From the UHGV virus genome UHGV-1377268: a DNA stretch of 60,976 bases; one strand, written 5' to 3'. The translations under genes were made by a program, and so were the position numbers. Positions 16,818-58,350 of the stretch are shown here, one piece after another. Origin of the DNA: a virus. The notes below the pieces were generated by a model, which was given only the letters and a program-made list of their open reading frames with translations, searched no databases and was not told the origin of the DNA. Positions within the stretch are counted from its first letter, which is position 1. The number at the start of each line of letters is the position of its first letter.

Positions 16818-16860
16818 TGAAATAATTCTTGACGAATTGCAGACAGGGAGGTATAGTTAT
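16818..16860 (+). promoter_or_regulatory. sigma70 promoter, family copy (aaataattcTTGACGaattgcagacagggaggTATAGT)
   Basis: -35 TTGACG 16829-34, 17-bp spacer, -10 TATAGT 16852-57, A/T-rich UP element. Confidence 0.6.
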
Positions 16861-16888
16861 CACAACAAAACGAACTGAGGGTAAGACG

Positions 16889-17050
16889 ATGAAAAAATCC
16901 ATTGTGAATATTGTTAAACAACACTTAGCGTTACAAGGTCGTAAAATGAAACTAACGGGTGAAAAGATGAACGGAAAACCTTGTTACTCTGTCACTGGTT
17001 GGTCAGGTCACTACACTATTGACGGTATAATCTGGCAGTTAGGTTTGTGA
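16889..17050 (+). CDS. hypothetical small protein (moron inside tail cluster)
   Basis: 53 aa, GAGGG RBS; own promoter upstream and a terminator downstream; opposite strand to the flanking tail genes. Confidence 0.4.
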   Translation: MKKSIVNIVKQHLALQGRKMKLTGEKMNGKPCYSVTGWSGHYTIDGIIWQLGL

Positions 17051-17051
17051 A

Positions 17052-17090
17052 ATAAAAAAAGCCCCGGTTAGTCCGGGGCAGTTCTTTTAC
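17052..17090. terminator. bidirectional rho-independent terminator
   Basis: A7-gccccgg-ttagt-ccggggc-agttctttt. Confidence 0.65.
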
Positions 17091-18544
17091 AGAGTTGGCA
17101 GATACGGGAACAGACTGAAGCCGATCATGAAGTCTAAACCAGCCTCTTCATGAGCAGTACCTGATACTGTCACTTTAACCTTCTCACCCGTCGCCAGGTT
17201 CTTAGAACCATCACCCAGCGTCATCGCAGGAATGTTAACCACAAATGCACCATCACCATTAACGCCAGCCAGTTCAAACGTAACGGTAGTGTTGTTACGG
17301 ATCGCCGCAAGCACCGCGCCATCAGTCATGACTGCTTCAGTATCAATGGTGACTTCCAGATTACCCAGGTTGGTAAACGTGGCACCCATGCGGCCCAGCG
17401 TGTTTTCACCCGATACGTTGTTGTTGATCGTGATGGTGGTATCTTTCAAATAGGTTGAAAGCCCACTTTCATCGATCCCGGTCAGGCGAACACGATTGAG
17501 GTTAGTAACCGTGTTATACGCTTCGTTTTCAATGAAATCGTAATAACCAGAACCCGGCAGCGGAGTATCAACAGGCTCTGACAAATCCTGTGCGACAAAC
17601 GTCAGATCCATTGTCATTTTTTCAGTCAATGGCGCGTTGATGGTCATCTGGTTAGCGCTAACACCACGAGCATATTCGTAAATTTCCGGTTCTGTGTTAT
17701 AACGCGCTTCCATCGTGTATTCAGTTTTCACGAAATCCGGTGAATCAACCGGAACGTTACGCACAAAACTGGATACGTAAATACTAACGGTTTTCCCTGT
17801 ACCGACTTCGGTTACAAACTCACTGCTTGCCAGAGTAAGCACGTGATCTGTTACCGAAACAACCCGCGCTAATTTACTGGTAACAGTCTGGGTGAAGCCA
17901 TCAATGTAGATGTACTGACCCGGAATCAACCCCAGCGTGGTAAAATCAAGCGTGGTTGACGTGATTTGACCGTTGGCATTTACTGCAATGTCACCTGCAG
18001 CAGCGACTGTACCGACCACGTACAAACGTGCAGTAGCTGGCGGGGATGCTTCAGCTACCAGACCAGTAACGTTAATATCGGTAGTGGTGCTGCCTGAACC
18101 AACCGTTTTCAGACCGTTATTTGCAGCCATCATAAATCCGGCAGCATAAACCAATGTTCCGGCGGGTAATGCGCTTGCAAGTGCGGCAACGGTATAGCTA
18201 TCGCTATCAACACTGATCACATCAATATCGATAGCCCCGGCACCCATCCAGCGGCTGTAAAGGAAGCCGTCACCCCAGTAACGGAATGTGTCCAGCGTGA
18301 TATCAGTCTGAAACCCTGGCGCAACTTCAATATTGGTTACAGTGCCTTTCCGCGCGGATCGGTCAGTGCTGATCGGGGTACGTTGAGTTTTGGTAATGTC
18401 AGCAGAATACGAACTGATTTCGTTCGGTTGCTGTACAGTCCAGGGTGTACTGCTGACAGGCTCGCAGACCTTAGCCACAGAGAGACGGGTTGCGTTAACG
18501 TCTGCAGCGCTGGCCTGATTACAGTTAAAAATTGACTCAGCCAT
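17087..18544 (-). CDS. major tail protein
   Basis: 485 aa; Thr/Val-rich beta composition with an Ig-like C-terminal region; positioned between the tail terminator-like gene and the chaperone. Confidence 0.5.
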   Translation of the reverse strand: MAESIFNCNQASAADVNATRLSVAKVCEPVSSTPWTVQQPNEISSYSADITKTQRTPISTDRSARKGTVTNIEVAPGFQTDITLDTFRYWGDGFLYSRWMGAGAIDIDVISVDSDSYTVAALASALPAGTLVYAAGFMMAANNGLKTVGSGSTTTDINVTGLVAEASPPATARLYVVGTVAAAGDIAVNANGQITSTTLDFTTLGLIPGQYIYIDGFTQTVTSKLARVVSVTDHVLTLASSEFVTEVGTGKTVSIYVSSFVRNVPVDSPDFVKTEYTMEARYNTEPEIYEYARGVSANQMTINAPLTEKMTMDLTFVAQDLSEPVDTPLPGSGYYDFIENEAYNTVTNLNRVRLTGIDESGLSTYLKDTTITINNNVSGENTLGRMGATFTNLGNLEVTIDTEAVMTDGAVLAAIRNNTTVTFELAGVNGDGAFVVNIPAMTLGDGSKNLATGEKVKVTVSGTAHEEAGLDFMIGFSLFPYLPTL

Positions 18545-18560
18545 TTTGGTTCCTCATTCG

Positions 18561-20192: not shown

Positions 20193-20232
20193 GTGGTCAC
20201 CTGTACAGAATAGTTTTCATTATTTTAGCACG

Positions 20233-20475: not shown

Positions 20476-20806
20476 ATATGTTGTGATGGTCGGTGCTGAT
20501 CTCCGACTTTACCTGTGTTAACCCGCTACCCGGCTGGAGGTTTAGACAACCTAACGTAATGTAGATTGCAGCGGCCCTCTAAACTAAACCACCCAGTGCG
20601 TCAGCCCGCACATTCATCACAACGGAAAGAGCACTGGCTAACCAGGCGCGCCGACTCTTCACGATTATCGACTCAATGCTCTTACCTGTTGTGTGCTGGT
20701 TACGTTTATCCAGCGTCACACACGGTGACCGATTAAAGGCTAAGGTTTTCAACAGCGTCTGCTATGCAGTTCTATCTAATCAGCGTCGCCTTGAACTAAC
20801 AATACG

Positions 20807-21145
20807 TTAAGAAATATTGTAAGTCAAACTTTTTTCTTCACACCATTTTTCAGCGTCATCTTTACGTAATTTCTTCTCGCTGATCAGCATCCCGCCCATG
20901 TAGACGTTGTACCAGCCAGAACCTTCGTTACGGATTTCAGCTACTGCGCCGGACTGTTCCGGTTGCTGTTCCGGTTCGGAACCGTCAGCCAGTTCAATCT
21001 GACGCATCTTAAACAGGGAACGCAGGATTCCGATCGGTGTGTCATCGTCGGGTAATAAATCGCCCGTACCAACATATTTACCGTTCCATTTCATAGGGCG
21101 TGTAAACCGATATGTAGCTGACGGATCGAATTCATTTTTTTTCAT
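20807..21145 (-). CDS. hypothetical protein
   Basis: 112 aa starting MKKNEF with a GTGAGG RBS; downstream of the capsid gene. Confidence 0.4.
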   Translation of the reverse strand: MKKNEFDPSATYRFTRPMKWNGKYVGTGDLLPDDDTPIGILRSLFKMRQIELADGSEPEQQPEQSGAVAEIRNEGSGWYNVYMGGMLISEKKLRKDDAEKWCEEKSLTYNIS

Positions 21146-24316: not shown

Positions 24317-24632
24317 TGGGTGTTTCCTCGCGAGTTAACCACGGGTGCATAGTATCATACATTTCATGCTGTTTTCCTTATCTTTTAGATCTTACCCTAC
24401 TAACCCTTACTTACCTTACTTTTATAATTCTTATATAAATCTATACTATCTATGATAAGTATGTAAAAGATAATAAAAACAGTAAGTTAGAAGATAAATT
24501 TGTTAAAAATAAGTATACGCAAACTATGCAATCTATGTTACGGCTTACCAGATCTGTATAACTGTTTCATACCATCTATGTCATCTATGACGCTGAGTTA
24601 CGGCTTACCAAACTGGTAAGATGAAAGAAGAT
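24317..24632. repeat. iteron-rich AT-rich intergenic region A (paralog of 44069..44533)
   Basis: Contains cttacc repeats, tttataattcttatataaatctatactatctat, and 2x gttacggcttacca(g/a); shares about 60 bp of near-identical motifs with region B. Confidence 0.6.
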
Positions 24633-24676
24633 TTAAAATAATTCTTGACGGATTGCAGACAGGAAGGTATAGTTAT
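24633..24676 (+). promoter_or_regulatory. sigma70 promoter, family copy
   Basis: -35 TTGACG 24645-50, 17-bp spacer, -10 TATAGT 24668-73. Confidence 0.6.
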
Positions 24677-24716: not shown

Positions 24717-25013
24717 ATGGAATATGACGATCGAAAAGACCTGCACGGGTGGTTCGGTTTATCTTATGCGGCATTTGTTGTTATGCCCCGTGTGGCTATG
24801 ATGCAGATGCCGAAAGAGTGGCAGGAAAAAATGGCCGAACTTCTCCACGAATACGACGAAACAATCAACACTGGTGCGTTTGGTGTTCATTCCTGTTTTG
24901 TCACGGTCAAAGATAAAAACAATAGATTTATGAGTATGCCGGAACAACTGGTTAACTACCGTCATCCTCACCCTGAAACTAAACGTATTCTTTTAAAGAA
25001 AGGTGGCTGGTAA
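24717..25013 (+). CDS. hypothetical protein
   Basis: 98 aa (MEYDDRK..) with an AAAGG RBS. Confidence 0.4.
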   Translation: MEYDDRKDLHGWFGLSYAAFVVMPRVAMMQMPKEWQEKMAELLHEYDETINTGAFGVHSCFVTVKDKNNRFMSMPEQLVNYRHPHPETKRILLKKGGW

Positions 25014-25288
25014 TGTGCGAATGCATGAAAAAACTTGGTGACGAACTTCAACAACGACTGATGGAAAAAGTGCCGCAGGGTGCAGAAGTCAGTACCAACA
25101 TATTTGACAAAGTGGGCTGGGATAACCAGTGTCTGGGGCTGTCATCCGGGAACATCTACGTCATGCTGAAATATCGCCTGGCGTATCGTGCGCCGAAGAA
25201 AAACGGCGAACTGGCGAAGAACTTCACGCGATTAGAAACTAACGTGAAAATGTCTTACTGCCCGTTCTGTGGTGAAAAGCAGGAGTAG
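25013..25288 (+). CDS. hypothetical protein, C-terminal CPFCG zinc-ribbon-like motif
   Basis: 91 aa; start overlaps the upstream stop. Confidence 0.4.
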   Translation: MCECMKKLGDELQQRLMEKVPQGAEVSTNIFDKVGWDNQCLGLSSGNIYVMLKYRLAYRAPKKNGELAKNFTRLETNVKMSYCPFCGEKQE

Positions 25289-25291
25289 GTT

Positions 25292-25531
25292 ATGTGTGAA
25301 CTTACATCAGTTTTTGAAGTTCGATCCGGTATGGATGGTGCACCAGGCCGTGGGGAACGTGAAGGCGGCATGTATAGCAGTTTTGAACTGGCTAAAGAAC
25401 ATGCTGAAAAAGTCATTGAACGTATTAATCAGTTCGACGATGTTTTGTGGAAATCAAATGATCGGGCTGAAGGTGAATATTACTGGGTGGAGATCAACGA
25501 ATACGATGTTATCTACCCGGGGCAGGAGTAA
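25292..25531 (+). CDS. hypothetical protein
   Basis: 79 aa acidic ORF with an AGGAG RBS. Confidence 0.4.
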   Translation: MCELTSVFEVRSGMDGAPGRGEREGGMYSSFELAKEHAEKVIERINQFDDVLWKSNDRAEGEYYWVEINEYDVIYPGQE

Positions 25532-25536
25532 TACCT

Positions 25537-25710
25537 ATGACCGATATCGAAAAACGAATTAAAGAACTGCGCAGGCGTCAGGTTTGCATTCGTGAGAGTA
25601 TCGAAATACTCAGAAAACAATGGCGCGACGATCAGGAAGAACTGGCAAAATTAGCACCGCAGGCCATTCGTTCTGGTATTAGTGTTAATCTTGAAATGTC
25701 AGAACCATGA
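25537..25710 (+). CDS. hypothetical small coiled-coil protein
   Basis: 57 aa with a GGAG RBS. Confidence 0.3.
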   Translation: MTDIEKRIKELRRRQVCIRESIEILRKQWRDDQEELAKLAPQAIRSGISVNLEMSEP

Positions 25711-25721
25711 GGTAAACGCTG

Positions 25722-25988
25722 ATGAAACGTTGTGACGTATGTAACGGCTATCAGGGTGAACCAACACCTGTGAAAGTCGGTGATAAAGTTGATTTTGTGA
25801 TCGAGAAACGAACAGGTAATAGTATTCGAATGACCGCCAGAACCGGAAAACTTATGCTGATTAAAGAGAATGGTTTCAGCGTGATTTACCGCGGGACTGT
25901 TTACCACGCTGATTCTGTTTCAAGCCCTGCTGATCCGTCTCCGATTAGTCTGGCTATGTTCGGGCGCTGTACCTGTTCAACCCAGTGA
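25722..25988 (+). CDS. hypothetical protein (CxxC N-terminus)
   Basis: 88 aa ORF beginning MKRCDVCNG. Confidence 0.35.
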   Translation: MKRCDVCNGYQGEPTPVKVGDKVDFVIEKRTGNSIRMTARTGKLMLIKENGFSVIYRGTVYHADSVSSPADPSPISLAMFGRCTCSTQ

Positions 25989-26001
25989 ACCGATATCTTG
26001 C

Positions 26002-26059
26002 TTGACTGCTTAACCTCCTGTTAGTAGTATTACGTTAAACAACAGGAGGTTTTTATTTT
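26002..26059 (+). promoter_or_regulatory. terminator hairpin sequestering the RBS of the downstream HEG, with an internal sigma70-like promoter
   Basis: Stem aacctcctgtt (26012-22) / aacaggaggtt (26041-51) with an 18-nt loop and a T-run; AGGAGG SD at 26045-50 lies inside the 3' arm; TTGACT 26002-07, 17-bp spacer, TAGTAT 26025-30 would start transcription inside the loop. Confidence 0.5.
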
Positions 26060-26981
26060 GACCAGAAGAAAGACAGAACAAGAAAGAACTTCTGAAATTT
26101 TAGAAGTTTGTAAAAATACAAACTATCGTTTTATTAAATTTGTAAATGGGTACAAAAATGCTTCCAGCAGAATAGTCATGTATTGTGAAAAACATGGTGA
26201 ATGGGAAACATCATGCGACCTAGTCATAAACGGTAAAAATTTCTGCAGGAAATGTCGCAATGAAAAATTAAATTCAATTAATAGTATTAACCAAAAAGAA
26301 TATGAAAAAAGAATTGCTGATGTTTGTAATTCACGAGGTTATACGTTTATAAAATGGATTGAAACTTACCATGGGGTTCGTACAAAAGCATTGATACAAT
26401 GCGCTAAACATGGACAATGGGTTTCTTCTGGTAACAACATCACAATAAATAAAAGTTTTTGTAAAAAGTGTTATTTTGACAGCAAAAAGACCCCGTTAAA
26501 TTTAAGAGAAAAAGAAATAAATGAAAAATGTCATTCGTTAGGTTATGACTTTTTAGGGTGGGTAGACAAATATACTAACCAATACAGTAAGATTAAAGTA
26601 AAATGTCAAAAACATGGTGAATTTGTAACAACACCTACATTGTTATTACATGCTGGTAGGCGTTGTGCAGGTTGTGCAGCAACAGGTTTCAAGATTAAAA
26701 ATAAAGCTAGTTTATATATTTTGAGATCTGTTAGTGGTGAATATTTGAAGATAGGTATCAGTAATCATGTCGAAAAACGAATAAAAATATTAAGAAAAAG
26801 AACTCCATTTGAATTCAATGTTATTGAAATATATCACTCTGATGGTGCAACCATTCGTTCGCTTGAAAAAGACTTTCATTCTCATTTTGAATCTGCCGGG
26901 TTGACAGGGTTTGATGGTTGTACAGAGTGGTTAAAATGGAATCCGAATATAACCACTCTGATACGTATGATTACGGGATAA
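26058..26981 (+). CDS. homing endonuclease-like protein, T5orf172 (GIY-YIG-like) domain with three N-terminal Zn-finger-like modules (HEG1); TTG start
   Basis: Three tandem Y.F..W...Y.......C.KHGEW........C..C modules, then GFKIKNKASLYILRS..YLKIGIS..VEKRIKILR.. T5orf172 signature. Confidence 0.6.
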   Translation: MTRRKTEQERTSEILEVCKNTNYRFIKFVNGYKNASSRIVMYCEKHGEWETSCDLVINGKNFCRKCRNEKLNSINSINQKEYEKRIADVCNSRGYTFIKWIETYHGVRTKALIQCAKHGQWVSSGNNITINKSFCKKCYFDSKKTPLNLREKEINEKCHSLGYDFLGWVDKYTNQYSKIKVKCQKHGEFVTTPTLLLHAGRRCAGCAATGFKIKNKASLYILRSVSGEYLKIGISNHVEKRIKILRKRTPFEFNVIEIYHSDGATIRSLEKDFHSHFESAGLTGFDGCTEWLKWNPNITTLIRMITG

Positions 26982-27924: not shown

Positions 27925-27960
27925 AGAAAAGCCTCAGCGTGGTTACTGAGGCTTATTGTA

Positions 27961-28212
27961 TCACAGGTTAATCATACGTTGACCAACTTCACGATCGGTT
28001 GCGATCAGAAGGCGCTGGAGTTTGGCAACGTAACCAGATGGGAAAGGTTGAGAAAGAACAACATCAAGCATTTTAATCGTGTTCGGCATTGTCATTCGTT
28101 GCTTCAACGCCTGTGCACAACGTTTCAATGCTGTATTTGGTTTATCTTTATTCATCGCAATACACAACTGCAATGTTACAACTATATCGATAAACTCATG
28201 TACACCGATCAC
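27961..28212 (-). CDS. hypothetical protein
   Basis: 83 aa ORF in the minus-strand block between the AP2-domain and head morphogenesis genes. Confidence 0.35.
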   Translation of the reverse strand: MIGVHEFIDIVVTLQLCIAMNKDKPNTALKRCAQALKQRMTMPNTIKMLDVVLSQPFPSGYVAKLQRLLIATDREVGQRMINL

Positions 28213-28742: not shown

Positions 28743-28930
28743 AACTGTTCCCCCAGGTCATGCGCCACACGCTCAATTAAACGGCATGTGGCTTTAGGTT
28801 TATCAAAATTATCAACCCACTGTTCCGTATATTGTAAGTCGTCAGTGAATACCGATTTATCACGGTCACAGTGAATGATAATCATGCTGTGTTTTACCAT
28901 AAGGTGAAACGCCTGCAACTCACTTATCAT
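28739..28930 (-). CDS. hypothetical protein
   Basis: 63 aa ORF with overlapping start and stop. Confidence 0.3.
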   Translation of the reverse strand: MISELQAFHLMVKHSMIIIHCDRDKSVFTDDLQYTEQWVDNFDKPKATCRLIERVAHDLGEQL

Positions 28931-29402
28931 TCAGATATTCCTCAGCGTGCAACGCAGCATAGGCGATCATATCTTCCAGACTGTCACGGTGTGGTGTTTC
29001 AGTATTTGAATAGAAACGAACTGCTTTTAACAGCACCATGAATAGCCAGCCTTCACCCGGTGTTAAATCGCGTTTGGTAATCGCATTAAACGCATTAACG
29101 ATTGCAGCCGCTGAACGTTCTTCACCTGACTTATCATACTGTTTACCACGTTCAGCCAGAAGTTGTGCGGCGCGGTTCAACAGTTCCGGTGCGGTTGATA
29201 GTTGTTCAATGGGACGATGTTCGACAGTTCGCCATAAAGCAGGATCAGACATTGAAAAATTAGTACCCGTTTCAATCTTCATCATGCGAGCCTGCGAACG
29301 AGGTAATTCCGACCAGTGATAATGATCACTAAGTTGATAACCTGTGCGTATAACAACACATTCAGCCCACTCAGGCGCTTTACTCCAGTCAACTTTACTC
29401 AT
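28920..29402 (-). CDS. hypothetical protein
   Basis: 160 aa from MSKVDWSK with a GAGGAA RBS; the longer ORF-track start would run through the plus-strand promoter. Confidence 0.4.
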   Translation of the reverse strand: MSKVDWSKAPEWAECVVIRTGYQLSDHYHWSELPRSQARMMKIETGTNFSMSDPALWRTVEHRPIEQLSTAPELLNRAAQLLAERGKQYDKSGEERSAAAIVNAFNAITKRDLTPGEGWLFMVLLKAVRFYSNTETPHRDSLEDMIAYAALHAEEYLNDK

Positions 29403-29422
29403 CGTTTGTTCCTCGTTGGTTA

Positions 29423-29465
29423 TAAATAATTCTTGACAGATTACACTACAGAACGCAGTATTGCA
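29423..29465 (+). promoter_or_regulatory. sigma70 promoter, family copy
   Basis: aaataattcTTGACAgattacac..; -35 at 29433-38, -10 cagtat at 29456-61. Confidence 0.5.
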
Positions 29466-29494: not shown

Positions 29495-29998
29495 ATGTCT
29501 AATCTTTACATTCAACGACTCACTAACCTGGCTGTGATCCCAACGCGTGAAACGGCTGATAGCGCCGGGATGGATGTTCGCGCGTGTCTGTGGTCTGAAA
29601 CAGTAACAATCTACCCGCCTGCAGGCGCTAAACTGGAACGAAAACCCATTGAGGGGATTATTGGTATCTATCCCGGTGAACGCGCACTGATCCCCACTGG
29701 TTTGAAAATGTCTGTCGATGCTGATCATTGTATCAAATTTTACCCTCGTTCCGGCCTTAGCCTGAAAAACGGTATGACGCTGATCAACTGCGTGGGCGTT
29801 GGTGATCGCGATTATCCCGGCGAATATTTCATTACTCTGGTCAACCATTCCCACAAAGTGTTCATGCTGGAACACGGCGAACGTTGCTGTCAACTTATGG
29901 TAGAACGCGTTGAACCGGTAGACGTGGTTGAAGTGGAACAGTTGCCCGGCGTGGAAAGTCAGCGTAAAGGCGGTTTCGGATCAACGGGGCGTAAATGA
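29495..29998 (+). CDS. dut: dUTP diphosphatase (dUTPase)
   Basis: Trimeric dUTPase motifs: ..AGMDVRA.., ..RSGLSLKNG.., C-terminal GGFGSTG. Confidence 0.75.
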   Translation: MSNLYIQRLTNLAVIPTRETADSAGMDVRACLWSETVTIYPPAGAKLERKPIEGIIGIYPGERALIPTGLKMSVDADHCIKFYPRSGLSLKNGMTLINCVGVGDRDYPGEYFITLVNHSHKVFMLEHGERCCQLMVERVEPVDVVEVEQLPGVESQRKGGFGSTGRK

Positions 29999-30324
29999 TG
30001 ACTAATCGTGAATTGCTGATCAATGCGGCCCGTGCTGGCGAAATCGCGGGTAAGTATTACATCGCGTATGGTGAACGTGACGTAAACGAAGGGATCGATA
30101 TCGGCGGTGGTCGCTTGTGGAACCCGCTTATCAATAACGCTGATGCTTTCAGTTTGATGGTGCGCCTGTATTTGGATCTGGATGTTAGAGACTATGGTAT
30201 TTTAGTTAATAGCCCAGATACTGGTGTTCGTTATAAACAACTTGTTGCCCGTGGTGAAGACCGTGAAAAAGCAACCCGTTTAGCGATCGTTAACTGTGCT
30301 GCAATTATTGGGGAAAACTTATGA
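29995..30324 (+). CDS. hypothetical protein
   Basis: 109 aa; start overlaps the dut stop. Confidence 0.4.
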   Translation: MMTNRELLINAARAGEIAGKYYIAYGERDVNEGIDIGGGRLWNPLINNADAFSLMVRLYLDLDVRDYGILVNSPDTGVRYKQLVARGEDREKATRLAIVNCAAIIGENL

Positions 30325-30959
30325 AACTTTTAGACATTTTAATTCAAGAAACAATAAATGGTCAATTCATTTGGCCTAAAGGTGCTGACGAAGTCCGGCA
30401 ATATCCGAAAGATTTTGCAGGTAGAACAGCATTTATAAAGAACGGCGGTGGTTTAGTAAAAGAAATGATACTCCCAATCGCAGATGATGCTTCATTGTTT
30501 AACAAAGTTAGTTTTTTAAAGTATGAACAGTCATTAACTATGGTTAAGTTAGGCATTCCAAGTATCGGGGCTTCCGTTCAATGGAATACCGGTAACGAAT
30601 GGATAACGGTTACTGTACTAGGCGTCAACGGTAACGAAGTGTGGGTTAAGCCTGAAGACGGTTCTGAATCGTTTGTGGTTAATGACGACGATTTCAAACC
30701 ACTGCCTGATGAACGTGATTTGGCGGTTCAACAAATGTTCTATGATTTACCAGAGAATATGCGACCTGGTAAAGATGTTCGTGAAGCAATTTACGATGCT
30801 GGTTATCGTAAAGTTAAACCGCTACCTGATGAGAATCAGACTATTAAACAAATCGCAGATATGATTGGTAAAGGTTCTACAGCACTAGAAGATGCTGATT
30901 ACATTTATCGTAGTATCATATCAGGATTAATTAACACGCCATGCAGGTGCGACTCATGA
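30321..30959 (+). CDS. hypothetical protein
   Basis: 212 aa ORF with an overlapping start. Confidence 0.4.
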   Translation: MKLLDILIQETINGQFIWPKGADEVRQYPKDFAGRTAFIKNGGGLVKEMILPIADDASLFNKVSFLKYEQSLTMVKLGIPSIGASVQWNTGNEWITVTVLGVNGNEVWVKPEDGSESFVVNDDDFKPLPDERDLAVQQMFYDLPENMRPGKDVREAIYDAGYRKVKPLPDENQTIKQIADMIGKGSTALEDADYIYRSIISGLINTPCRCDS

Positions 30960-31207
30960 CTATCATGAAAAACGGTGTTGGGGATGTGGTGGCGTTTCTC
31001 CCGAAAGTTATCATTACGGATCCGTCACTGGTTGACTATCCGCGAACCACGCCACAAGCTGACGCAAGTTATACTGACCTGTGCGACGATATAATCCGGG
31101 GTTGTGATATCGGTATAGAGAAGTTGCAAAAACTGCGTCAGGAGTACGAACAGCGGCGGGTTATGGCAGCAATGGGTGTTCCGCCAGTATTCGACGTTTC
31201 AAAATAA
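30941..31207 (+). CDS. hypothetical protein
   Basis: 88 aa ORF; its 3' end overlaps the next promoter copy. Confidence 0.35.
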   Translation: MQVRLMTIMKNGVGDVVAFLPKVIITDPSLVDYPRTTPQADASYTDLCDDIIRGCDIGIEKLQKLRQEYEQRRVMAAMGVPPVFDVSK

Positions 31208-31243
31208 TTCTTGACGGATTACACATGGACGTGTACTGTTAAA
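31201..31243 (+). promoter_or_regulatory. sigma70 promoter, family copy
   Basis: -35 TTGACG 31211-16, 17-bp spacer, -10 TACTGT 31234-39. Confidence 0.55.
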
Positions 31244-31269: not shown

Positions 31270-31605
31270 ATGTTCGTAATACTGTGGATCCTGTTTAGCG
31301 CTCTGGTTGGTGCCTTCGCCAAACGTACCGGGCGTAACCCCGGAACCTGGTTCTTCATTGCGGTTTTAACCAGTCCCGGCATCGGTGCAATACTGTTGTT
31401 GATCGGCTGGTTACTGAATGGTTCAGTGAAAAAAGAAGTTGTGAGCAATCACAAAATGTTCGGCAGTTATGAAGCGGCTTATAATTACGTGACCGATAAT
31501 TACAACGTCGATATGTATTATCGGTCACAGGTTGCTTCTGAAATTTATCGACTGGCCCGCAACACGGACGATTGCGATCAAATCGTTGCAAATTATGTGG
31601 GGTAA
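31270..31605 (+). CDS. membrane protein (two TMDs)
   Basis: 111 aa with a TAAGGAGG RBS and N-terminal hydrophobic helices. Confidence 0.45.
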   Translation: MFVILWILFSALVGAFAKRTGRNPGTWFFIAVLTSPGIGAILLLIGWLLNGSVKKEVVSNHKMFGSYEAAYNYVTDNYNVDMYYRSQVASEIYRLARNTDDCDQIVANYVG

Positions 31606-31677: not shown

Positions 31678-31703
31678 GGGGTCTGTTATAGACCCCTTTT
31701 TTT
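31678..31703 (+). terminator. rho-independent terminator upstream of HEG2
   Basis: ggggtct-gttat-agacccc followed by T7. Confidence 0.6.
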
Positions 31704-43349: not shown

Positions 43350-43369
43350 GCCCCGTAAGGGGCTTTCTT
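43350..43369 (+). terminator. rho-independent terminator
   Basis: gcccc-gtaa-ggggc followed by tttctt. Confidence 0.6.
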
Positions 43370-44068: not shown

Positions 44069-44533
44069 AAGCTAGTTTCCTCTTACCATTTTGGTTAATT
44101 TTGCACAATTTATCACGGATTGTCTACAACATACTTTAAGTCGTTGATAACATTGAAAATCATAGATAGTATGGTATTTTCCTATAACTTTTTAATCCCT
44201 CCTAGTTTACCTTGTTTCAGCTTACCAGTTTAACTAGCCTAACTATACCTACTTTATAATTTCTTATATATCTATACTATCTATACTATCTATACTATAA
44301 AAAGATAAATAACTAATATATAAGGATTTTTAGTTTCAGCTTACCAGATGTGCTTGGATAGTTTACATAGAACTTTAGCAATCTATGTTTCAGCTTACCA
44401 GTTGTAACAAGGTTTCTCTTTCATCCTACCAGATATAACAAGGCCAACTTTGATCCTGTTGCATATAAGAGTTGTACTTGTTTCATATAAGGCGTAAACT
44501 TGACCTAATCACATCTGGTAAGGTGTAACAACA
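44069..44533. repeat. iteron-rich AT-rich intergenic region B (paralog of region A)
   Basis: (ctatactat)x3-4 direct repeats, 3x gtttcagcttaccag plus tcatcctaccag, and tttataatttcttatata shared with region A. Confidence 0.6.
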
Positions 44534-48298: not shown

Positions 48299-48420
48299 AA
48301 CACCGCCCTCAACAGAAGTATCAGCCCGCCAAATAAAAACGCGCCGATAATTGTTTTAAAAAATGAACGGCGTTCTTCCGCCGTTCTGAACCGTGACGCT
48401 TCTATTAATAGTTTATTCAT
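48295..48420 (-). CDS. small membrane protein
   Basis: 41 aa ORF with overlapping starts and stops. Confidence 0.2.
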   Translation of the reverse strand: MNKLLIEASRFRTAEERRSFFKTIIGAFLFGGLILLLRAVL

Positions 48421-49171
48421 GATCTTTCAGCGCCTTCAGTGCTTCATACTGTTCAGCGGTCAGTTCAACCAGGACTTTACCGCCTTCCTGCCGCGTGACC
48501 GACCATTCACCACGGATGGCTTCAACAACTGAACGAATCAGTTTTGCCGGAGGGCGTTTAACGGTAGCAACGTCCGGGTTTTTAAACAGGTTAATCGCGG
48601 CTGATGCACTGATCGACCCTTCCTGAATCCGGCGTTTGAGTTCCAGCGGCATTTCAAGGATAGTCAGCAACTGGTAAACGTGCTGTACGGTTTTACCGAC
48701 CTCGTGGGCGATTTCTTCAACGGTCATACCGTAGGATTTAAAGCGACCGTAATGAACCGCACGTTCGACGGCTGACCACTGGCGACCATTGTTAGCGTTA
48801 AAGTTGGTTTTAGCCTGCGCCAGTTCGTCACCAGACGCTTCAACGACTTCAACACGCTGGAATGGTACACCCTCAGCGATCAGTTTACGCAGCGCCCGTA
48901 AGCGGTGCTCACCATCGCGCACATACGGCACACCGTCGATAACTTTAACGGCGATTGGCGGGACGAAATCACCGTTGCGATACGCTTTAACGAACTGTTC
49001 GATATGCGCCAGAGTATCCGGCTGTTCCCAGTAGTTTTCTGTGAACATACCACGCGGGTTAAAGCCCGGCTCGATCTGGATAATGCGCGGGTCGATCATG
49101 AAGGAGTTAGCGCGTTTTACGTTTTCTTTGTCTGCTTCTGACAGCTTGCGCAGTGAATGGATGTTGGACAT
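48413..49171 (-). CDS. ParB-like nuclease domain protein
   Basis: ParB/Srx-fold N-terminal domain pattern (..IAVKVIDGVPYVRDGEHRLRAL..). Confidence 0.55.
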   Translation of the reverse strand: MSNIHSLRKLSEADKENVKRANSFMIDPRIIQIEPGFNPRGMFTENYWEQPDTLAHIEQFVKAYRNGDFVPPIAVKVIDGVPYVRDGEHRLRALRKLIAEGVPFQRVEVVEASGDELAQAKTNFNANNGRQWSAVERAVHYGRFKSYGMTVEEIAHEVGKTVQHVYQLLTILEMPLELKRRIQEGSISASAAINLFKNPDVATVKRPPAKLIRSVVEAIRGEWSVTRQEGGKVLVELTAEQYEALKALKDHE

Positions 49172-49201: not shown

Positions 49202-49247
49202 GCTGATTATGGTGGAGGGTTTGCAATGTGTCAAGAATTATTTTGAA
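49202..49247 (-). promoter_or_regulatory. sigma70 promoter, family copy (minus strand)
   Basis: Minus strand aaaataattcTTGACAcattgcaaaccctccacCATAAT; -35 at 49229-34, -10 at 49206-11. Confidence 0.55.
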
Positions 49248-51700: not shown

Positions 51701-51924
51701 AATTTAACCTCGTGGTGATTGCAAAAGTCCTGAACTAATGGGCATTCGCGCGGATGTTCAATACCCTTTATAACCTGACAACCAGAATCCGTAAGCAGAT
51801 TACACGCCGGGCAATAACGGTTAGGTTCGACTAACCATAACCCCTGACAACGCCCACCGCTAAAACGGTGTGGAAAGTCATAAGCGCTACAACGGCATGT
51901 ATATTGTTTACGGCGACGTTTCAT
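51697..51924 (-). CDS. Cys-rich small protein
   Basis: 75 aa with multiple CxxC motifs; ATG lies at about the predicted TSS of the upstream promoter copy. Confidence 0.4.
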   Translation of the reverse strand: MKRRRKQYTCRCSAYDFPHRFSGGRCQGLWLVEPNRYCPACNLLTDSGCQVIKGIEHPRECPLVQDFCNHHEVKL

Positions 51925-52867
51925 GATTCAAGTTTAAACCTATGTTGTGCAATCCGTCAAGAATTATTTTAATGTAATCTAAAATTTCTGGTGAGTAGTG
52001 AAACCATTCTGTTGCACCATCAAAACCTGTTAAACCAGCGTTTAAGTGTTTGAATTTCTTATGAATATTTTGCTCTAAATCATAAGACTGCTGACCAGTA
52101 CCCACATTGATTTGAAAAATTTTATGTAGCTTGAAAGGCGTGTTGCGTTTAAGCTGTTGTATTCTTCGGTGAGTGTTATTTGTAACGCCTATTTTAATCA
52201 ATTGAGGATGGTTTTTATCATCTGCTACGATGTATACGAAACCTGGCAAAGAACGATCCAAACCAGCAACAGCGCATGATGAACATCCATAACCGTTCAA
52301 ATGTCCATTTGGTCTTTGCCAAAACTCACCGTGTTCAGGGCAGATAATGCAAACCTTCTTATGTGCATTCGTATAAATAACTTTATGATAATCATACTTA
52401 CAACCATGTACTAATACTGCATTTTTAACAAATTGTTCTTTATCACCAGATTGTGCAATTGATATACGCTGTTTTTTACATTCCGGGCATCCATGACCAT
52501 TGAAATGATGATGTGGTTTTTGTTTAAAAAAACCATGTTTTGTGCATTTTATATCGACGGGAACTGTAGCGCCGTTGTAAACAACAAAGGAATAATCATA
52601 CTTAGACCCGTGTACAGCATAAGACCTTTTTATAAAATCTGAAATTGTAAACTTACCTTTTTCAGAAATGATGATTTTACCACATTCCGGACAACCCCTT
52701 TTATTGTACAAATGGTTATTGGGAGTTTGCCAAAAATCACCATGTATAGGACACGTTATACAAACTTTTGTATTTGTGTTTACATAAACGACAGAATCAT
52801 AACTATATTTTCCGTCATGTATAGTTAATGCTCGTTTTACAAATTGGTCAGTTGTTAATCTACACAT
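51908..52867 (-). CDS. homing endonuclease-like protein, T5orf172 domain with three Zn-finger-like modules (HEG3)
   Basis: Three Y.Y..V.Y......C..HG.F........GC.EC modules, then GFVYIVADDKNHPQLIKIGVTNNTHRRIQQLKR..; AAGGAA RBS. Confidence 0.6.
   Translation of the reverse strand: MCRLTTDQFVKRALTIHDGKYSYDSVVYVNTNTKVCITCPIHGDFWQTPNNHLYNKRGCPECGKIIISEKGKFTISDFIKRSYAVHGSKYDYSFVVYNGATVPVDIKCTKHGFFKQKPHHHFNGHGCPECKKQRISIAQSGDKEQFVKNAVLVHGCKYDYHKVIYTNAHKKVCIICPEHGEFWQRPNGHLNGYGCSSCAVAGLDRSLPGFVYIVADDKNHPQLIKIGVTNNTHRRIQQLKRNTPFKLHKIFQINVGTGQQSYDLEQNIHKKFKHLNAGLTGFDGATEWFHYSPEILDYIKIILDGLHNIGLNLNHETSP
51925..51975 (-). promoter_or_regulatory. sigma70 promoter, family copy (minus strand), embedded in the HEG3 3' coding region
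   Basis: Minus strand aaaataattcTTGACGgattgcacaac..; -35 at 51955-60; the sequence encodes KIILDGLHN of HEG3. Confidence 0.5.
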
Positions 52868-52898
52868 TTCGTTCCTTATCACTTCCTTGTGAGTTAAA

Positions 52899-55253
52899 TT
52901 AATTATTACTAGCCGGTTGGAAAGGTAAAACATTATTTGGCTGATGTAATTCTTTTAACTTTACTCCTCTAAACCCGTTAGCTCTTTCACCGTTAACTGA
53001 CACCACATCTTTAACCACTCGCCCACGAAGCATTGATTTAAACGCACGACTGAATGCGGTTTTAGTCATTGTAACACCACCTTCTGACATTTTCCACATT
53101 TTATAGTATTGATATAGTTGCTCCGTGTGGGTTACGCTATCAGGTAACAGCTCGCAGCAGTCGCGAACGAAAGCCATCAACGGTGCCTGCTGATCCATAA
53201 TTTCCTGACGCTCAATAATACTTGCTGTTGGTTCAGTGAAGCGGTTATTTTTACGCAACCGTTCAAGACCTTCGATAGCCCAGTTGCAGATCCCCGGTAA
53301 TTCTTTCATTAACCGTGATTTCAGCGTGATATCTTCTCGACCCAGAAACGAGATATTAAAGGGCAGGATCAGCAAGCGGTTTGCCATTGCGCCGGAATCA
53401 TCAGCAAAGGCCGGGATATTATTCGCGGCAAGTGTCATACGACCCGGTAAACGACCATTCCACGCACCTTTATATTTACGGTTAACAGGTATCGCATCAG
53501 CCCCGGTTATCGATTTAAAACGGTCGAGAATCCTGTTACGGTCAGGCCCGGAAACACTGTGAGCATCACCAATAAATAACACAGATTTATCAAGCACGGT
53601 TTCCAGAACAGCATCACTTGCCAGCCCTTCAAGCGTAATCCCGGCATAGGCTTCATCACCTACCAGCGCCTGAATAATCTGGCCGATAGTACCCTTCCCA
53701 GAACGAGGCGCACCGATTAGTAACATCGCTTTCTGATAGTCATAGGAGTTAACCAGCATATACCCCAGCCATTCCTGCAGCAGTGCAATACGTTCCTGAT
53801 CGCCTTCCAGCGTCGTATTCAGAAAATCCTGAAAAACGGGTGCCTGTGCGAAAGGGTCATAACTGTATGGTAAAATACTGGTGGTGAAGAAATCAGGGTT
53901 ATGCGGTTCACATTTTCTGGTGTGAACGTCAAGTATCCCGTTTTGACACACAATATAGTGTGAAACATCAACGCCCGGCCAGGTGCCTAACTCACGATCT
54001 GCACGGGTGAATAAATAGCTTAAAACCTTATAGGTGCCATTAATAACGTCAGCTTTTGGTTCGCTTGCCAGCATTGCCATAGATAACTGATGTTTTAATT
54101 CATCTTCTGTCACACGTTCCCAGACGCGACCGTTAAAGCGGTACGGTTGCTGCTGTACAAAAACCAGCGTGTTATTTGGATAATAGTTATTAACGAAAGT
54201 GGATGCGTTAACCGTATGGTTAGCCCCATAAGCACCTTCACCGGGTCTGATCGACATATACGCCGGAACACTACCCGTTACCGCAACTGTAGGCGCTGGC
54301 GTAACAGCGTTAATCAGTTCTGGGGTCAGCGCAGGTTGCGCACGATAAACAGTATCGCAACGTTCAACCGCTCCTAATATGGTGGTTTCGCGGTAATCCT
54401 GGCGATCAGTCCACTTACCACGAACAAGCGCTGATTTATTAAATAACCGCTCCATGCGTTCACAGTTTTTACCTGTCCAGAAAGCAAGGTGTGAACACAG
54501 GGCAGCATCTGCGGCTGACGCGTTGTAGTCTTTCCCTTGATCGCTTGCATAGCTGACAGACAGTTTTTCGACATTTGCCGTCCACAGATCCGCAAACGAT
54601 GCCTTATTGCCAAAAACTGAAGCCGCACTGGATGACTTCAACGCCATTGCGATCAGTTCTTCGTCATCGTCAGGCCCGGACCATTCATCACAGGGTGCGC
54701 TGGTCCAGTGTGCGGAACGATCAGAACGAATTCGACCATACCGGGCGATCGAGTCGTGAACACCCTGTGTATAGTCAACGTCAACTTCACCATTCCCGGT
54801 TAATGTCATGGCAACAAAGCGATCGCGCCAGTACATTTCAAGCCCGGTTTTCTGATCGTTAAGGCTGTTGAACCCTTCCGGTAAACTGCTATACGCACAG
54901 ATGATATGTAAACCTGTTCCTGACTGGCTTACTTCCGTATAAGCGCCGGGGAAACGGTTTACAAATTCGTGCGCCAGTGGTGACCACGTAGCAGTAGCCT
55001 GATCTACCAGACAGTTATCGACGTCAATGAAAAAATAGGGATCGTTTTCAGTGAACACGAAACCGACACCCGACATACCATACATTTGCGCCATACCCAG
55101 CGCAGTATGATAGTCAGACCAGTCAGCAGGGTTTGTTGTACTGGCCTTATACCCGTGGATTGGGCTGTAAGGTACTTTGGTAGGTTTTGGGCGACCTTCA
55201 ACGTGTTCCAGCCTCCAGCAGACCCATTGTTTACGGTTCAGCAATCCTTTCAT
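52899..55253 (-). CDS. bifunctional primase-polymerase (PrimPol) / D5-like SF3 helicase
   Basis: N-terminal PrimPol-like region, C-terminal Walker A GAPRSGKGT and D5_N-like region; 784 aa. Confidence 0.7.
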   Translation of the reverse strand: MKGLLNRKQWVCWRLEHVEGRPKPTKVPYSPIHGYKASTTNPADWSDYHTALGMAQMYGMSGVGFVFTENDPYFFIDVDNCLVDQATATWSPLAHEFVNRFPGAYTEVSQSGTGLHIICAYSSLPEGFNSLNDQKTGLEMYWRDRFVAMTLTGNGEVDVDYTQGVHDSIARYGRIRSDRSAHWTSAPCDEWSGPDDDEELIAMALKSSSAASVFGNKASFADLWTANVEKLSVSYASDQGKDYNASAADAALCSHLAFWTGKNCERMERLFNKSALVRGKWTDRQDYRETTILGAVERCDTVYRAQPALTPELINAVTPAPTVAVTGSVPAYMSIRPGEGAYGANHTVNASTFVNNYYPNNTLVFVQQQPYRFNGRVWERVTEDELKHQLSMAMLASEPKADVINGTYKVLSYLFTRADRELGTWPGVDVSHYIVCQNGILDVHTRKCEPHNPDFFTTSILPYSYDPFAQAPVFQDFLNTTLEGDQERIALLQEWLGYMLVNSYDYQKAMLLIGAPRSGKGTIGQIIQALVGDEAYAGITLEGLASDAVLETVLDKSVLFIGDAHSVSGPDRNRILDRFKSITGADAIPVNRKYKGAWNGRLPGRMTLAANNIPAFADDSGAMANRLLILPFNISFLGREDITLKSRLMKELPGICNWAIEGLERLRKNNRFTEPTASIIERQEIMDQQAPLMAFVRDCCELLPDSVTHTEQLYQYYKMWKMSEGGVTMTKTAFSRAFKSMLRGRVVKDVVSVNGERANGFRGVKLKELHQPNNVLPFQPASNN

Positions 55254-55918: not shown

Positions 55919-56421
55919 AAGTGTTTAGTCCCGCTGGTGAGATATTTGATCTGATGAAGGCAATCATCCAGCGCGTTATGAAAAACGCCATCACGGGTAA
56001 ACAGTTTAGTATTGATACCCAGCAAATCCACCGCCGTGCGAACATCACGAACGTTCCAGAATTTCCACGGGCAGCGGATACCTACTGCATCAAATCATGC
56101 TTCTAAAATGGTGATATCAAATACAGACCCGTTACCCCAGGGAAGCGCATCAGAACGAATGAATTTTGCAAAACGTTGTGCTACTTCACGTGGGTCATCA
56201 GTCCCGCCAAACGCGTCAGTACGCGCCTGTTCAGACTGCTGCGACCACCAACGCATTGTATCAGCATCAGCATTACCGTATGACAACGCGCTAAAACCCA
56301 TTGATGCGTAAAACTGTTCACCGATATTACCTTTGCGATTGAAATATACAGCACCAATGGAAAGCACCGCACAACCGGGTTTCGTGCCACATGTTTCAAT
56401 ATCAATCATCAAATCACGCAT
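55915..56421 (-). CDS. DnaQ-like DEDDh 3'-5' exonuclease interrupted by an in-frame UGA (56095-56097)
   Basis: Exo I MIDIETCG and Exo II GNGSVFDITIL lie before the stop; Exo III FHNALDDCLHQIKY lies in the same frame after it; the C-part has no start codon and ends in an ATGA overlap with the VRR-NUC gene. Confidence 0.6.
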
Positions 56422-56437
56422 GTGTTTACCTTATATT

Positions 56438-56470
56438 TAAAATAATTCTAAACAGATTACCATTAAATCA
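56438..56470 (+). promoter_or_regulatory. degenerate relic of the promoter family (aaaataattcTAAACagattaccat), wrong orientation
   Basis: Matches the UP element and downstream box but lacks the TTGAC -35. Confidence 0.3.
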
Positions 56471-58127
56471 TAGTTCCTGCAACCCGTGCTGACAACTCGT
56501 TTGCTTCCCGCGTGTGTAATGCCTGCGCCGTAAGTACATCAACGCCGAAAACCTGATAAAACATACGATAAGCATCATCAGGTGATACGCCTTTATCACG
56601 CTGTAACCCAGCCCATGTGGTTATCATGGAACGTAGTTTACGCTGTGCATCGTTCATAGCCTGAATATTTTTCATCGCGCTGTAAGCTGCAACAGCAGGT
56701 GCGCCAGCGTTTAACATCTGGTCTTTAACTGCTGCCGGGTCACGGTCGATAATAACCACTGCGCGGCGCAGTTCTTCGAGTTCTTCAGCGGTCAGTTCAC
56801 GTAAATTACCCTCAACGCGATCCGGTCCTGAACGTAGCGCTTTTTCCGGTACATGACCGCAGTAAGGGCAAGCAGCAAGCCCTGCAGGATAAGGTTTCAG
56901 ACACGGTTCAATACCCTTTACTGCATCCCCTTTGTTTGTACAGGTGGTATTACTGGATCCGCCGCTGGATGATTTACGATCGCGGTCGTCTAACGACCAG
57001 TTGTAATGTTGATCGGGTAACGGAAAACCACGGGCAATAAAACGACGGACGTTACCCACTTTATCAATAATGAGTGCTTTTTTACCGGGGATATAGCGTA
57101 ACGGGCGTCCCATTTGTTGGATAAACAGTGAATAGGATTCAGTGGGTCTATCCATCACGGCGCATTCCATTGCCGGACAGTCATAACCCTCGCCGAACAG
57201 ATCCGCGTTGCACATAATCAGGGTTTTGCGTTTTTCGAAACGGTCCAGAATATCGGCGCGTTCCTGATCGGTATTACGCGAACTGATTGCCTCAGCAGGA
57301 ATACCCGCGTCCCTGAATTCCTGTGCCAGTGTTATAGCCGCGTCAACATCAACGGTGAAAACCACCGTCAGCATACCGTCGGCGTACATTTTCCAGGTAT
57401 TTACTGTATCACCAACGATGGTTGAATCTTCCATTGCCTTTTTCAACGCAGATGGCTTGTAATCCCCCGTAGTGCTGGAAATCATATCCGCTGTCAGGTC
57501 AATATCTGTTTCAGCCATAATCAGGCGATAATCGGCCAGGTGCTGCTGGTTGATTAATTCACGCATTGCCGGACCAATCACCATTGCATCAGCATAGCCA
57601 GACGCATGACGTCCAAGCCCTTTACCATCGGCACGGATCGGTGATGCAGTTACACCTAATCCTAAAGATTTTGGGAAAAGTTCACGACAGGTTCCCCACA
57701 TGGTGCCGCGTACCAGATGATGGGCTTCATCACAAAAAACACGGGTTACGCTATCATGCCATCGTTCGTATTTTTTTGTTCGCAGCGTGGGCGCACTGGC
57801 AATAACGATATCTGCGCCGGGTGCATAGGTACTGTAACCCAGCTTTTTCATCTGCTGCCCCGTGGCAAACTTAATAGCGTCTTTTTGCGCAATAAAACGG
57901 AGTGGTAATCCCTGTGCGGCAATCGCCATCGCTATCTGACTGACCAGTTCCTTACGGTGCGCCTGGATAACTTTGATCCCGTCAACTTTCACCAGTTCAG
58001 CCATCGTTCGCGTTTTACCGCTCCCGGTAGGCATGACCAGGATCACATCTTTCTTACCAGCGTCCCACTGCGCATTCACGCCGTTAACGGCGTCCTGCTG
58101 GTAGTAACGTAATGGTTGTTGACTCAC
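56463..58127 (-). CDS. SF2 DEAD/DEAH-box helicase
   Basis: Walker A MPTGSGKT, DEAH motif (CDEAHH), helicase C region; C-terminal CPYCGH Zn motif. Confidence 0.7.
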   Translation of the reverse strand: MSQQPLRYYQQDAVNGVNAQWDAGKKDVILVMPTGSGKTRTMAELVKVDGIKVIQAHRKELVSQIAMAIAAQGLPLRFIAQKDAIKFATGQQMKKLGYSTYAPGADIVIASAPTLRTKKYERWHDSVTRVFCDEAHHLVRGTMWGTCRELFPKSLGLGVTASPIRADGKGLGRHASGYADAMVIGPAMRELINQQHLADYRLIMAETDIDLTADMISSTTGDYKPSALKKAMEDSTIVGDTVNTWKMYADGMLTVVFTVDVDAAITLAQEFRDAGIPAEAISSRNTDQERADILDRFEKRKTLIMCNADLFGEGYDCPAMECAVMDRPTESYSLFIQQMGRPLRYIPGKKALIIDKVGNVRRFIARGFPLPDQHYNWSLDDRDRKSSSGGSSNTTCTNKGDAVKGIEPCLKPYPAGLAACPYCGHVPEKALRSGPDRVEGNLRELTAEELEELRRAVVIIDRDPAAVKDQMLNAGAPAVAAYSAMKNIQAMNDAQRKLRSMITTWAGLQRDKGVSPDDAYRMFYQVFGVDVLTAQALHTREANELSARVAGTMI

Positions 58128-58306
58128 GCGCGGTTCTCCTTAACGTATGCATCACGCGCAGCTTTCTGTGCCTGTCCGTTTCGTTTAAACTCACGACCCC
58201 GGAAAATATACTTACCCGTTACACGGTCGAAAAATACGTTGTGACGAATGAAACTGTACAGGTCGTTGTTCATCGTTTTATCTCCGTTTTGAATGTGAAA
58301 TTATCA

Positions 58307-58350
58307 TAAAATAATTCTTGACACATTGCAACCTGACTCGTAACCTTAGC
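58307..58350 (+). promoter_or_regulatory. sigma70 promoter, family copy
   Basis: -35 TTGACA 58318-23, 17-bp spacer, -10 TAACCT 58341-46. Confidence 0.5.

Follow-up and report, generated by a model that had tools for sequence, protein, structure and literature searches.

A repeated 26-bp promoter block in a 9NA-like Klebsiella siphophage: a predicted family of host sigma-70 early promoters

Why does a phage genome repeat one promoter about a dozen times, with a conserved core that extends past what sigma-70 needs? The question is raised by the virus genome UHGV-1377268, whose 60,976 bp (the window, i.e. the whole stretch of DNA analysed) make up a circularly permuted and essentially complete genome of a 9NA-like Klebsiella siphophage. 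The phage is virulent. Klebsiella phage Kpn BU9 is ~95% identical to the window across 71% of a 15-kb test segment, and 9NA, SP069, Sergei, Solent, PJ16 and others are ~80-84% identical over core genes; the gene map used here combines a simple gene call with the annotation of relatives. The likely answer is that the copies are host sigma-70 early promoters of the non-virion genes, and the anatomy, position and deep conservation of the family back its prediction as a promoter family.

The original prediction listed about 12 copies, and all of its coordinates were right (Table 1). The 14-mer AAATAATTCTTGAC matches the window exactly at 11 sites; two further sites differ from it at two positions, and none at just one. 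With up to two mismatches allowed, chance predicts 0.79 matches, and 100 shuffles never gave as many as 13. With TTGACGGATTGCAGA at up to three mismatches, 9 matches were obtained (1.96 expected). One of the two-mismatch matches (TTTAAAATAATTCTAAACAGATTACCA, 56440-56453, plus strand) belongs to a degenerate copy, and the other (2184-2197, minus strand) lies inside the DNA polymerase gene. The degenerate copy had been described as a dead, reversed promoter between two replication genes, and this is what is found: it lies, in antisense, within the 41 nt that separate the minus-strand genes for the helicase and the exonuclease. The relic is conserved in BU9 and 9NA, and more weakly in Sergei.

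Five complete genomes (the window, BU9, 9NA, AVIO78A and Sergei) supplied 57 copies, 55 of them unique, and their alignment defines a nearly invariant block of 26 bp, TTTAAAATAATTC-TTGACR-N-ATTRCA, which spans -48 to -23 and reads, by position, T-48 TTAAAATAATTC TTGAC R N ATT R CA-23. TTGAC is invariant, and the sixth position of the hexamer is G or A in all 55 copies; downstream, A-28 is kept in 53 of the 55, A-23 in 50, and T-27, T-26 and C-24 in every copy. Conservation at -48 to -45 and at -30 to -23 is no ascertainment effect, because these positions lie outside the search pattern. A core extended past the needs of sigma-70 is supported, with ~24 of 26 positions under selection and with ATTRCA persisting in a Proteus relative (large terminase 60% identical). 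The extra identity after the -35 element is also real, but shorter than the 9-10 bp proposed: it comprises only N-ATTRCA (-29 to -23), and -22 and -21 are unconserved family-wide. By sequence, AAAA (-45 to -42) and TTT (-48 to -46) match the proximal subsite for the C-terminal domain of the polymerase alpha subunit (alpha-CTD); the distal subsite shows no conservation among the 55 copies. Apart from TTTAAA and AATT, neither dyad nor direct-repeat symmetry can be read in the sequence of the block, and by inspection only, no convincing match to the Fis, IHF, RcsAB or mar-box consensus was found.

The -10 element is the sole signal downstream of the block, with T-12 in 36, A-11 in 43 and T-7 in 42 of the 55 copies at a spacing of 17 bp; copies that do not fit at 17 bp fit an 18-bp spacer. 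The TAnnnT hexamer at 17 bp that had been ascribed to all copies is present in 8 of the 11 in the window, and copies 29433, 49234 and 51960 depart from it in hexamer or spacing (Table 1). The leader (25-40 nt) is followed by a Shine-Dalgarno sequence and ATG, and every copy is upstream of, and co-oriented with, a gene run, ~60 nt ahead of the Shine-Dalgarno sequence and ATG. The 5' leaders are no more structured than shuffled sequence; hairpins noticed by eye after some of the -10 elements were unsupported once the predicted start was used. A generic sigma-70 scan gave no genome-wide excess of promoter-like sites; 8 of the 11 window copies passed it, and the family came out on top (consensus matches of its best copies in Table 1).

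Eight of the 11 copies head five plus-strand islands of small genes, antisense to the minus-strand virion genes. That each copy heads such an island, as had been proposed, is correct for these eight; copy 58318 heads the operon for the exonuclease, single-stranded DNA-binding protein (SSB) and DNA polymerase, and copies 49234 and 51960 head minus-strand accessory operons, the first gene behind 49234 encoding a ParB-like protein with a helix-turn-helix (HTH). Of the five islands, one lies between the tail chaperone and major tail genes (copy 1) and a second between the head genes and the gene for head morphogenesis; a third is bounded by gene 29402 and the portal gene, a fourth by the portal gene and that for the large terminase, and the last by the two terminase genes, large and small. 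Almost all island genes are of unknown function; recognisable products comprise dUTPase, a dCTP-deaminase-like protein, RdgC, methylases, NinX and a MazG-like protein. The islands close with GC-clamp hairpin terminators, several of them bidirectional. Since the antisense islands chop up the virion genes, no island can do without a promoter and a terminator of its own, the latter often bidirectional. The simplest account of the family is that of host sigma-70 early promoters, a known kind of element, repeated because the architecture needs one per island.

The virion and lysis segments carry a different signal. Alignments of the regions upstream of late genes in the five genomes, suggested by repeats in the Vibrio relatives, gave a conserved extended -10 element, TGnTAnnnT, without a -35 element; most of those listed for the window are conserved across all five genomes (Table 1). 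These elements are probably late promoters.

A search for the motif across related phages, as proposed with the original prediction, places the family group-wide: each 9NA-like record, whether from Klebsiella, Salmonella or Escherichia, has 9-13 occurrences of a 33-nt consensus. In AVIO78A (44861, 44924) and Sergei (45529, 45592), a tandem pair of copies, spaced by 63 bp, precedes the exonuclease/SSB/polymerase operon, and 9NA (5841) and Sergei (8108) have an extra copy right after the large terminase gene, co-oriented with the virion genes; the window has neither the tandem pair nor the post-terminase copy of these E. coli and Salmonella relatives. Proteus phage PM-CJR, which shares the alternating architecture (large terminase 60% identical), has a cognate family, TTTAAAATATGGC-TTGACA-N-ATTACA, in which the A-tract, the -35 element and the ATTRCA box are retained and -39 to -36 differ. 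A metagenomic lineage (68% large terminase identity) has wTAATAATTC-TTGACG-TGTTGCA. In Mulvp2-like phages (~49% identical; e.g. Enterobacter phage Mulvp2), a bipartite motif AAAATAATTg-N6-gtRTGTA occurs ~15-20 times per genome; its N6 is TTGACR, with a proper -10 element, in some copies, and in many others there is no -35 element, some of these having a Shine-Dalgarno sequence directly ahead of ATG. The Vibrio relatives lack the promoter family; instead, GTGATATACT (extended -10) lies ahead of each virion segment, as at 3665, 5112, 15120, 17124, 19480, 19967 and 23762 in Vibrio phage 1.012.O, and is a conserved, predicted extended -10 late promoter family of these distant relatives. The 26-bp family is not described in the 9NA announcement or in the AVIO78A, BU9, Sergei and BASEL papers (the group's main comparison, Zeng et al. 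2019, was outside the scope), a full-text literature search for the motif gave nothing relevant, and the AVIO78A record annotates only generic TTGACA-N15-18-TATAAT matches.

A strict 23-nt pattern has only 3 matches in 185,579 species genomes (one genome per bacterial species); this is about chance level (roughly 0.3 estimated), so the block is no host motif. One of the three matches is a spacer in a 27-repeat, type I-F-like array of clustered regularly interspaced short palindromic repeats (CRISPR) of Yersinia pekkanenii (NZ_CQAZ01000023.1, 1145-1176): the 32-nt spacer TTAAAATAATTCTTGACGTATTGCACTGATGT equals the promoter block, and the other 25 spacers have no match to the phages compared here. 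In IMG/VR, a 14-mer scan returned mostly single chance matches, and it was the 23-nt degenerate pattern that gave useful results. Contigs with several copies are 9NA-like, and those with a single copy represent a temperate Klebsiella phage lineage, e.g. ST512-KPC3phi13.3 (there 2501-3027), with the identical 26-bp core between an antirepressor-type gene and the tail fibre gene. This core precedes a DUF1902 (HicB-like)/HicA pair, of which there are two diverged versions, or a gene for a DUF4760 membrane protein. Over the 5 kb compared, the core is all that the temperate lineage has in common with 9NA-like phages; as judged from this comparison, the bare 26-bp core has passed into the temperate lineage at least once.

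Whether the copies are alike by descent under selection or by homogenisation was examined with 30 orthologous pairs (window versus 9NA, AVIO78A and Sergei). The block is 91% identical between orthologues, and its flanks are 44-54% identical. The G or A at -30 differs among paralogues and is kept in 30 of 30 orthologous pairs, and -29 and -25 are just 40% identical between orthologues, i.e. saturated. The per-site state at -30 together with the saturation of -29 and -25 indicates that each copy has been under purifying selection since divergence and was not homogenised.

We consider it likely, on these grounds, that host sigma-70 polymerase would use the block to transcribe the host-takeover islands and the genes for nucleotide metabolism, recombination and part of replication. 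The A-rich, UP-like element (TTTAAAATAATTC, -48 to -36) would engage alpha-CTD at the proximal subsite, next to a near-consensus -35 element (TTGACR), a modest TAnnnT -10 element at 17-18 bp, and a short, unstructured leader with a Shine-Dalgarno sequence; the ATTRCA box at -28 to -23 is an additional conserved part of each copy. Recognition by sigma-70 and alpha-CTD, early timing and promoter strength are thus predicted features. The early promoters of T4, T5 and T7 (A1-A3) and the UP element of rrnB P1 likewise work with host sigma-70 and have an A-tract at ~-45 to -41 and a consensus-like -35 element. To our knowledge, these promoters are mutually similar, not identical over 26 bp, and none has a conserved ATTRCA at -28 to -23. 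The identical core, alone in prophages that share nothing else, argues that host factors suffice for activity.

As a likely consequence, the early promoters would depend on the -35 and UP elements and the late promoters would be -35-independent. No operator would then be needed to switch the programme, since any factor with the ability of T4 AsiA to block sigma region 4 could do so. AsiA acts on just such a layout of -35-dependent early and extended -10 promoters. The likeness (early -35 and UP dependence, late TGnTAnnnT without -35) is one of analogy only, and, unlike in T4, no AsiA or MotA homologue was detected here.

Several points weigh against host sigma-70 promoters as the whole explanation. 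No transcript 5' ends or timing data for any 9NA-like phage were present in the literature reached. The block conserves ~43 bits, which is well above the known demand of sigma-70 plus alpha-CTD, so that something else probably reads it. Some -10 hexamers are poor (CAGTAT, TAACCT, TACTGT), the helicase-primase operon has no copy of the family, and the -35-less boxes in the Mulvp2-like lineage and in the relic at 56436 hint at a function of the boxes' own.

It is possible, and we put it forward tentatively, that each copy is a composite of a promoter and a site for a dedicated factor, with the boxes AAAATAATTC and ATTRCA read by a phage or host protein. Such a protein, made early by the phage, delivered with the virion or supplied by the host, would activate or shut all units together, which corresponds to the shared operator suggested in the original prediction. 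It would account for an information content far above promoter needs and for purifying selection on each copy, for an ATTRCA box kept out to Proteus relatives when -39 to -36 is lineage-specific (ATTC versus TGGC), for the Mulvp2-like boxes AAAATAATTg-N6-gtRTGTA with or without a -35 element, and for the relic that retains its boxes without one. The identical block in prophages that share no other sequence over the 5 kb compared sits poorly with a dedicated phage factor, as does the lack of dyad or direct-repeat symmetry, and no co-variation is available that ties the boxes to a protein. In Pfam searches (64 non-structural open reading frames, plus 14 others scanned separately) and PHROGs searches (ten of these), no sigma factor, AsiA-type protein, MotA or HTH regulator was found, and the sole recognisable DNA-binding fold was the HTH of the ParB-like protein. 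A classical repressor operator is likewise not what is seen: there is no symmetry, and no nearby HTH regulator but the ParB-like protein.

An unlikely alternative is that recombination, through gene conversion between copies or PeSL-like cassette shuffling (see below), is the main reason why the copies are identical, and not selection on every base. Homology to relatives ends preferentially 24-65 nt past the start of the -35 element, between the -10 element and the first start codon; the median breakpoint distance is 51-63 nt, against 300-430 nt for random positions (2000 randomisations: P = 0.0005 for 9NA, 0.0025 for AVIO78A, 0 for Sergei and 0.09 for BU9). The bare core has moved into the prophage lineage, and two BU9 copies share a duplicated leader (tatcacaacgaaacgaactgagggtaagacgATG), which shows occasional exchange from the promoter into the leader; leaders behind the promoters form sub-families (BU9 21680 and 30071 versus window 16829 and 24645). 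Gene conversion is nevertheless rejected, because it would homogenise the paralogue differences at -30, -29 and -25. Gene order and promoter positions are, moreover, fully syntenic. Breakpoints just past syntenic promoters indicate that the promoters are fixed boundary posts, behind which the cassettes are replaced. Of the mobile promoter-plus-moron units of the original prediction, the exchange of downstream genes is borne out; the promoters themselves are syntenic and inherited site by site.

The closest described analogue of this arrangement is the promoter-early stem-loop (PeSL) cassettes of T4-like phages (Arbiol et al. 2010, PMC2839356; Comeau et al. 2014, PMC4122927). In both, many near-identical sigma-70-type early promoters with an AT-rich upstream part precede small ORFans in plastic regions amid core genes, and insertions or replacements have their breakpoints at the motif. 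The stem-loop that defines PeSLs is missing from the block described here, the terminators stand at island ends, and none abuts the promoters of co-oriented copies. The block is longer and includes the ATTRCA box, the phage is a roughly 60-kb siphophage, and the copies are syntenic and inherited site by site, apparently not shuffled, with the state at -30 preserved per site.

A very improbable reading takes TAAAAT in the upstream box as the -10 element of an overlapping second promoter for a phage-modified polymerase, comparable with T4 late TATAAATA, so that the block would work in two modes. The Mulvp2-like AAAATAATT, at a fixed short distance ahead of the Shine-Dalgarno sequence and ATG without a -35 element, would agree with this; in the 9NA-like phages, however, the exact TAAAATAATT almost never occurs without TTGAC, TG is missing at -49/-48, the stretch from -69 to -63 is unconserved, and no gp55- or gp33-like protein was found. 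That the block is a non-transcriptional repeated site, e.g. a centromere-like site of the ParB-like protein, is hardly credible: that protein is encoded first behind copy 49234 and there are ~11 dispersed sites, but the motif lacks symmetry, every copy points the same way as the genes behind it, a properly spaced -10 element and a leader are always present, and no ParB-like gene lies near the prophage copies, since the 5-kb region shares nothing else. The operators of KorB (ParB family) of plasmid RK2 offer a parallel, with about a dozen identical promoter sites on one replicon and an encoded ParB-like HTH protein; RK2 operators are palindromic, unlike the phage block, and nothing found here ties the ParB-like protein to that block.

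The promoter copies and their islands also resemble lambdoid morons, in which a promoter, a gene and a terminator are inserted among late genes. In the unit of copy 1 (16816-17079), which stands between two tail genes, the promoter is followed by one gene (53 aa) and a bidirectional terminator, and the same core heads prophage morons (HicAB or DUF4760) in the temperate Klebsiella phages. Unlike lambdoid morons, the units here belong to a virulent phage, in which prophage expression does not arise, are antisense to late genes, are multi-gene and have one common promoter.

Table 1. Promoter copies, terminators and extended -10 elements of the window. Plus-strand -35 elements are given by the first base of the hexamer, minus-strand ones by the whole hexamer, whose higher coordinate names the copy.
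Feature	-35 hexamer	Position	Strand	Description
Copy 1	16829	16816-16857	+	Block TTTGAAATAATTC-TTGACG-AATTGCA; 17-bp spacer; -10 TATAGT; 10/12 consensus matches; heads one-gene unit 16889-17050 (53 aa)
Copy 2	24645	24632-24673	+	-10 TATAGT; 10/12 consensus matches; heads island ~24831-26981, including GIY-YIG homing endonuclease gene 26058-26981
Copy 3	29433	29420-29461	+	TTGACA; 17-bp spacer; -10 CAGTAT; heads dUTPase island 29495-31207; 19 nt from divergent gene 28920-29402
Copy 4	31211	31198-31239	+	-10 TACTGT; internal to plus-strand run of copy 3; heads 31270-31605
Copy 5	34004	33991-34032	+	-10 TAGACT; heads island 34065-35928; back to back with portal gene promoter
Copy 6	38485	38472-38513	+	-10 TATGCT; heads 38544-40360; back to back with large terminase promoter
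Copy 7	40335	40322-40363	+	-10 TAGACT; within last codons of gene 40154-40360; heads 40398-43119, including RdgC
Copy 8	43123	43110-43151	+	-10 TATTAT; 10/12 consensus matches; heads 43188-43346, final unit ahead of small terminase gene
Copy 9	49229-49234	49206-49247	-	TTGACA; 17-bp spacer; -10 CATAAT; 11/12 consensus matches; heads ParB-like gene 48413-49171 and ~13 small genes down to 45486
Copy 10	51955-51960	51931-51973	-	18-bp spacer; -10 TAAACT; heads 51924 downwards
Copy 11	58318	58305-58346	+	TTGACA; -10 TAACCT; heads exonuclease/SSB/DNA polymerase operon, which wraps past window end to ~4697
Degenerate copy		56436-56461	+	TTTAAAATAATTC-TAAACA-GATTACCA; both flanking boxes intact, -35 ruined (TAAACA)
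Terminator		17061-17079		Bidirectional GC hairpin GCCCCGG...CCGGGGC; closes copy 1 unit
Terminator		31678-31696	+	After gene 31270-31605
Terminator		32541-32562	+	Near-duplicate of 31678-31696 on far side of inserted endonuclease gene; ends island ahead of portal gene
Terminator		35917-35934		Bidirectional GC hairpin; closes copy 5 island
Terminator		43350-43363		GC hairpin GCCCCGTAAGGGGC; closes run of copies 6, 7 and 8
Extended -10, holin		6231-6239	-	TGATATAAT (five-genome alignment)
Extended -10, head-tail		20222-20230	-	
Extended -10, head		24349-24357	-	
Extended -10, gene 24316				TGATAYYAT (five-genome alignment)
Extended -10, head morphogenesis		27955-27963	-	TGATAYAAT (five-genome alignment)
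Extended -10, portal		33961-33969	-	TGATATAAC (five-genome alignment)
Extended -10, large terminase		38441-38449	-	TGGTAAACT (five-genome alignment)
Extended -10, small terminase		44107-44115	-	

Three paralogous GIY-YIG (T5orf172/MUG113) endonuclease genes (26058-26981, 31717-32550 and 51908-52933), with zinc-finger or CapR domains, are not in BU9 and explain further gaps; the terminators at 31678-31696 and 32541-32562 both align to one BU9 terminator. The third of these genes ends, as had been noted for the C-terminal codons KIILDGLHN, by reading through a promoter (copy 51960). These residues fall past the end of the catalytic domain, so that the tail they form is incidental. Gene 40154-40360 likewise ends ...KIILDGLRIIK across copy 40335, and an HNH gene has its stop codon within the TTGA of copy 49234. 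About 7 nt separate the best -10 element of copy 51960 (TAAACT; window 51924-51960, minus strand) from the start codon (ATG) of the next gene; through the endonuclease insertion, the mRNA of this copy may be leaderless, and the BU9 leader there is normal.

Right after the head-morphogenesis promoter TGATACAAT (27925-27963, minus strand) there is a hairpin with a T-run, GCCTCAG-N8-CTGAGGCTTTT, and then the ATG; the promoter would transcribe this terminator-like hairpin only in part. An intergenic element, TTTGACTTACAATATTTCTTAACGTATTGTTAGTTCAAGGC, with the inverted repeat ACTTACAATA/TATTGTTAGT, follows the major capsid gene (~20790-20840, minus strand) in all five genomes. As a candidate late-gene motif, ACCCGTGG was dropped: it has 11 matches (1.6 expected), mostly in coding sequence and on both strands, with three copies just 5' of the large terminase gene, the portal gene and gene 24316.

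For the 9NA-like group (Nonanavirus, Sashavirus and Klebsiella relatives, some of which are used in therapy and some of which are in the BASEL collection), the family provides the first explicit, predicted transcription map, which shows ~11 identical early promoters, the terminators of the islands and late promoters of the extended -10 type. It accounts for how antisense islands can interrupt the virion cluster, and it marks the points at which accessory genes are swapped. The 26-bp block is a ready-made candidate for a strong promoter, one CRISPR spacer or one binding protein would hit ~11 sites, and the ATTRCA box is a mutational target for what the polymerase or a partner reads just past the -35 element. 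We regard as rather doubtful the more far-reaching proposal that the boxes are the site of a factor working with or against sigma-70 region 4, which together with the extended -10 late promoters would make up a complete early-to-late switch. If this is true, such a switch would operate in phages whose genomes encode no transcription regulator that can be recognised. A lysogen could then couple its prophage HicAB or DUF4760 genes (toxin-antitoxin or exclusion) to the programme of an invading 9NA-like phage, and shut-off of the shared promoter would release the toxin.

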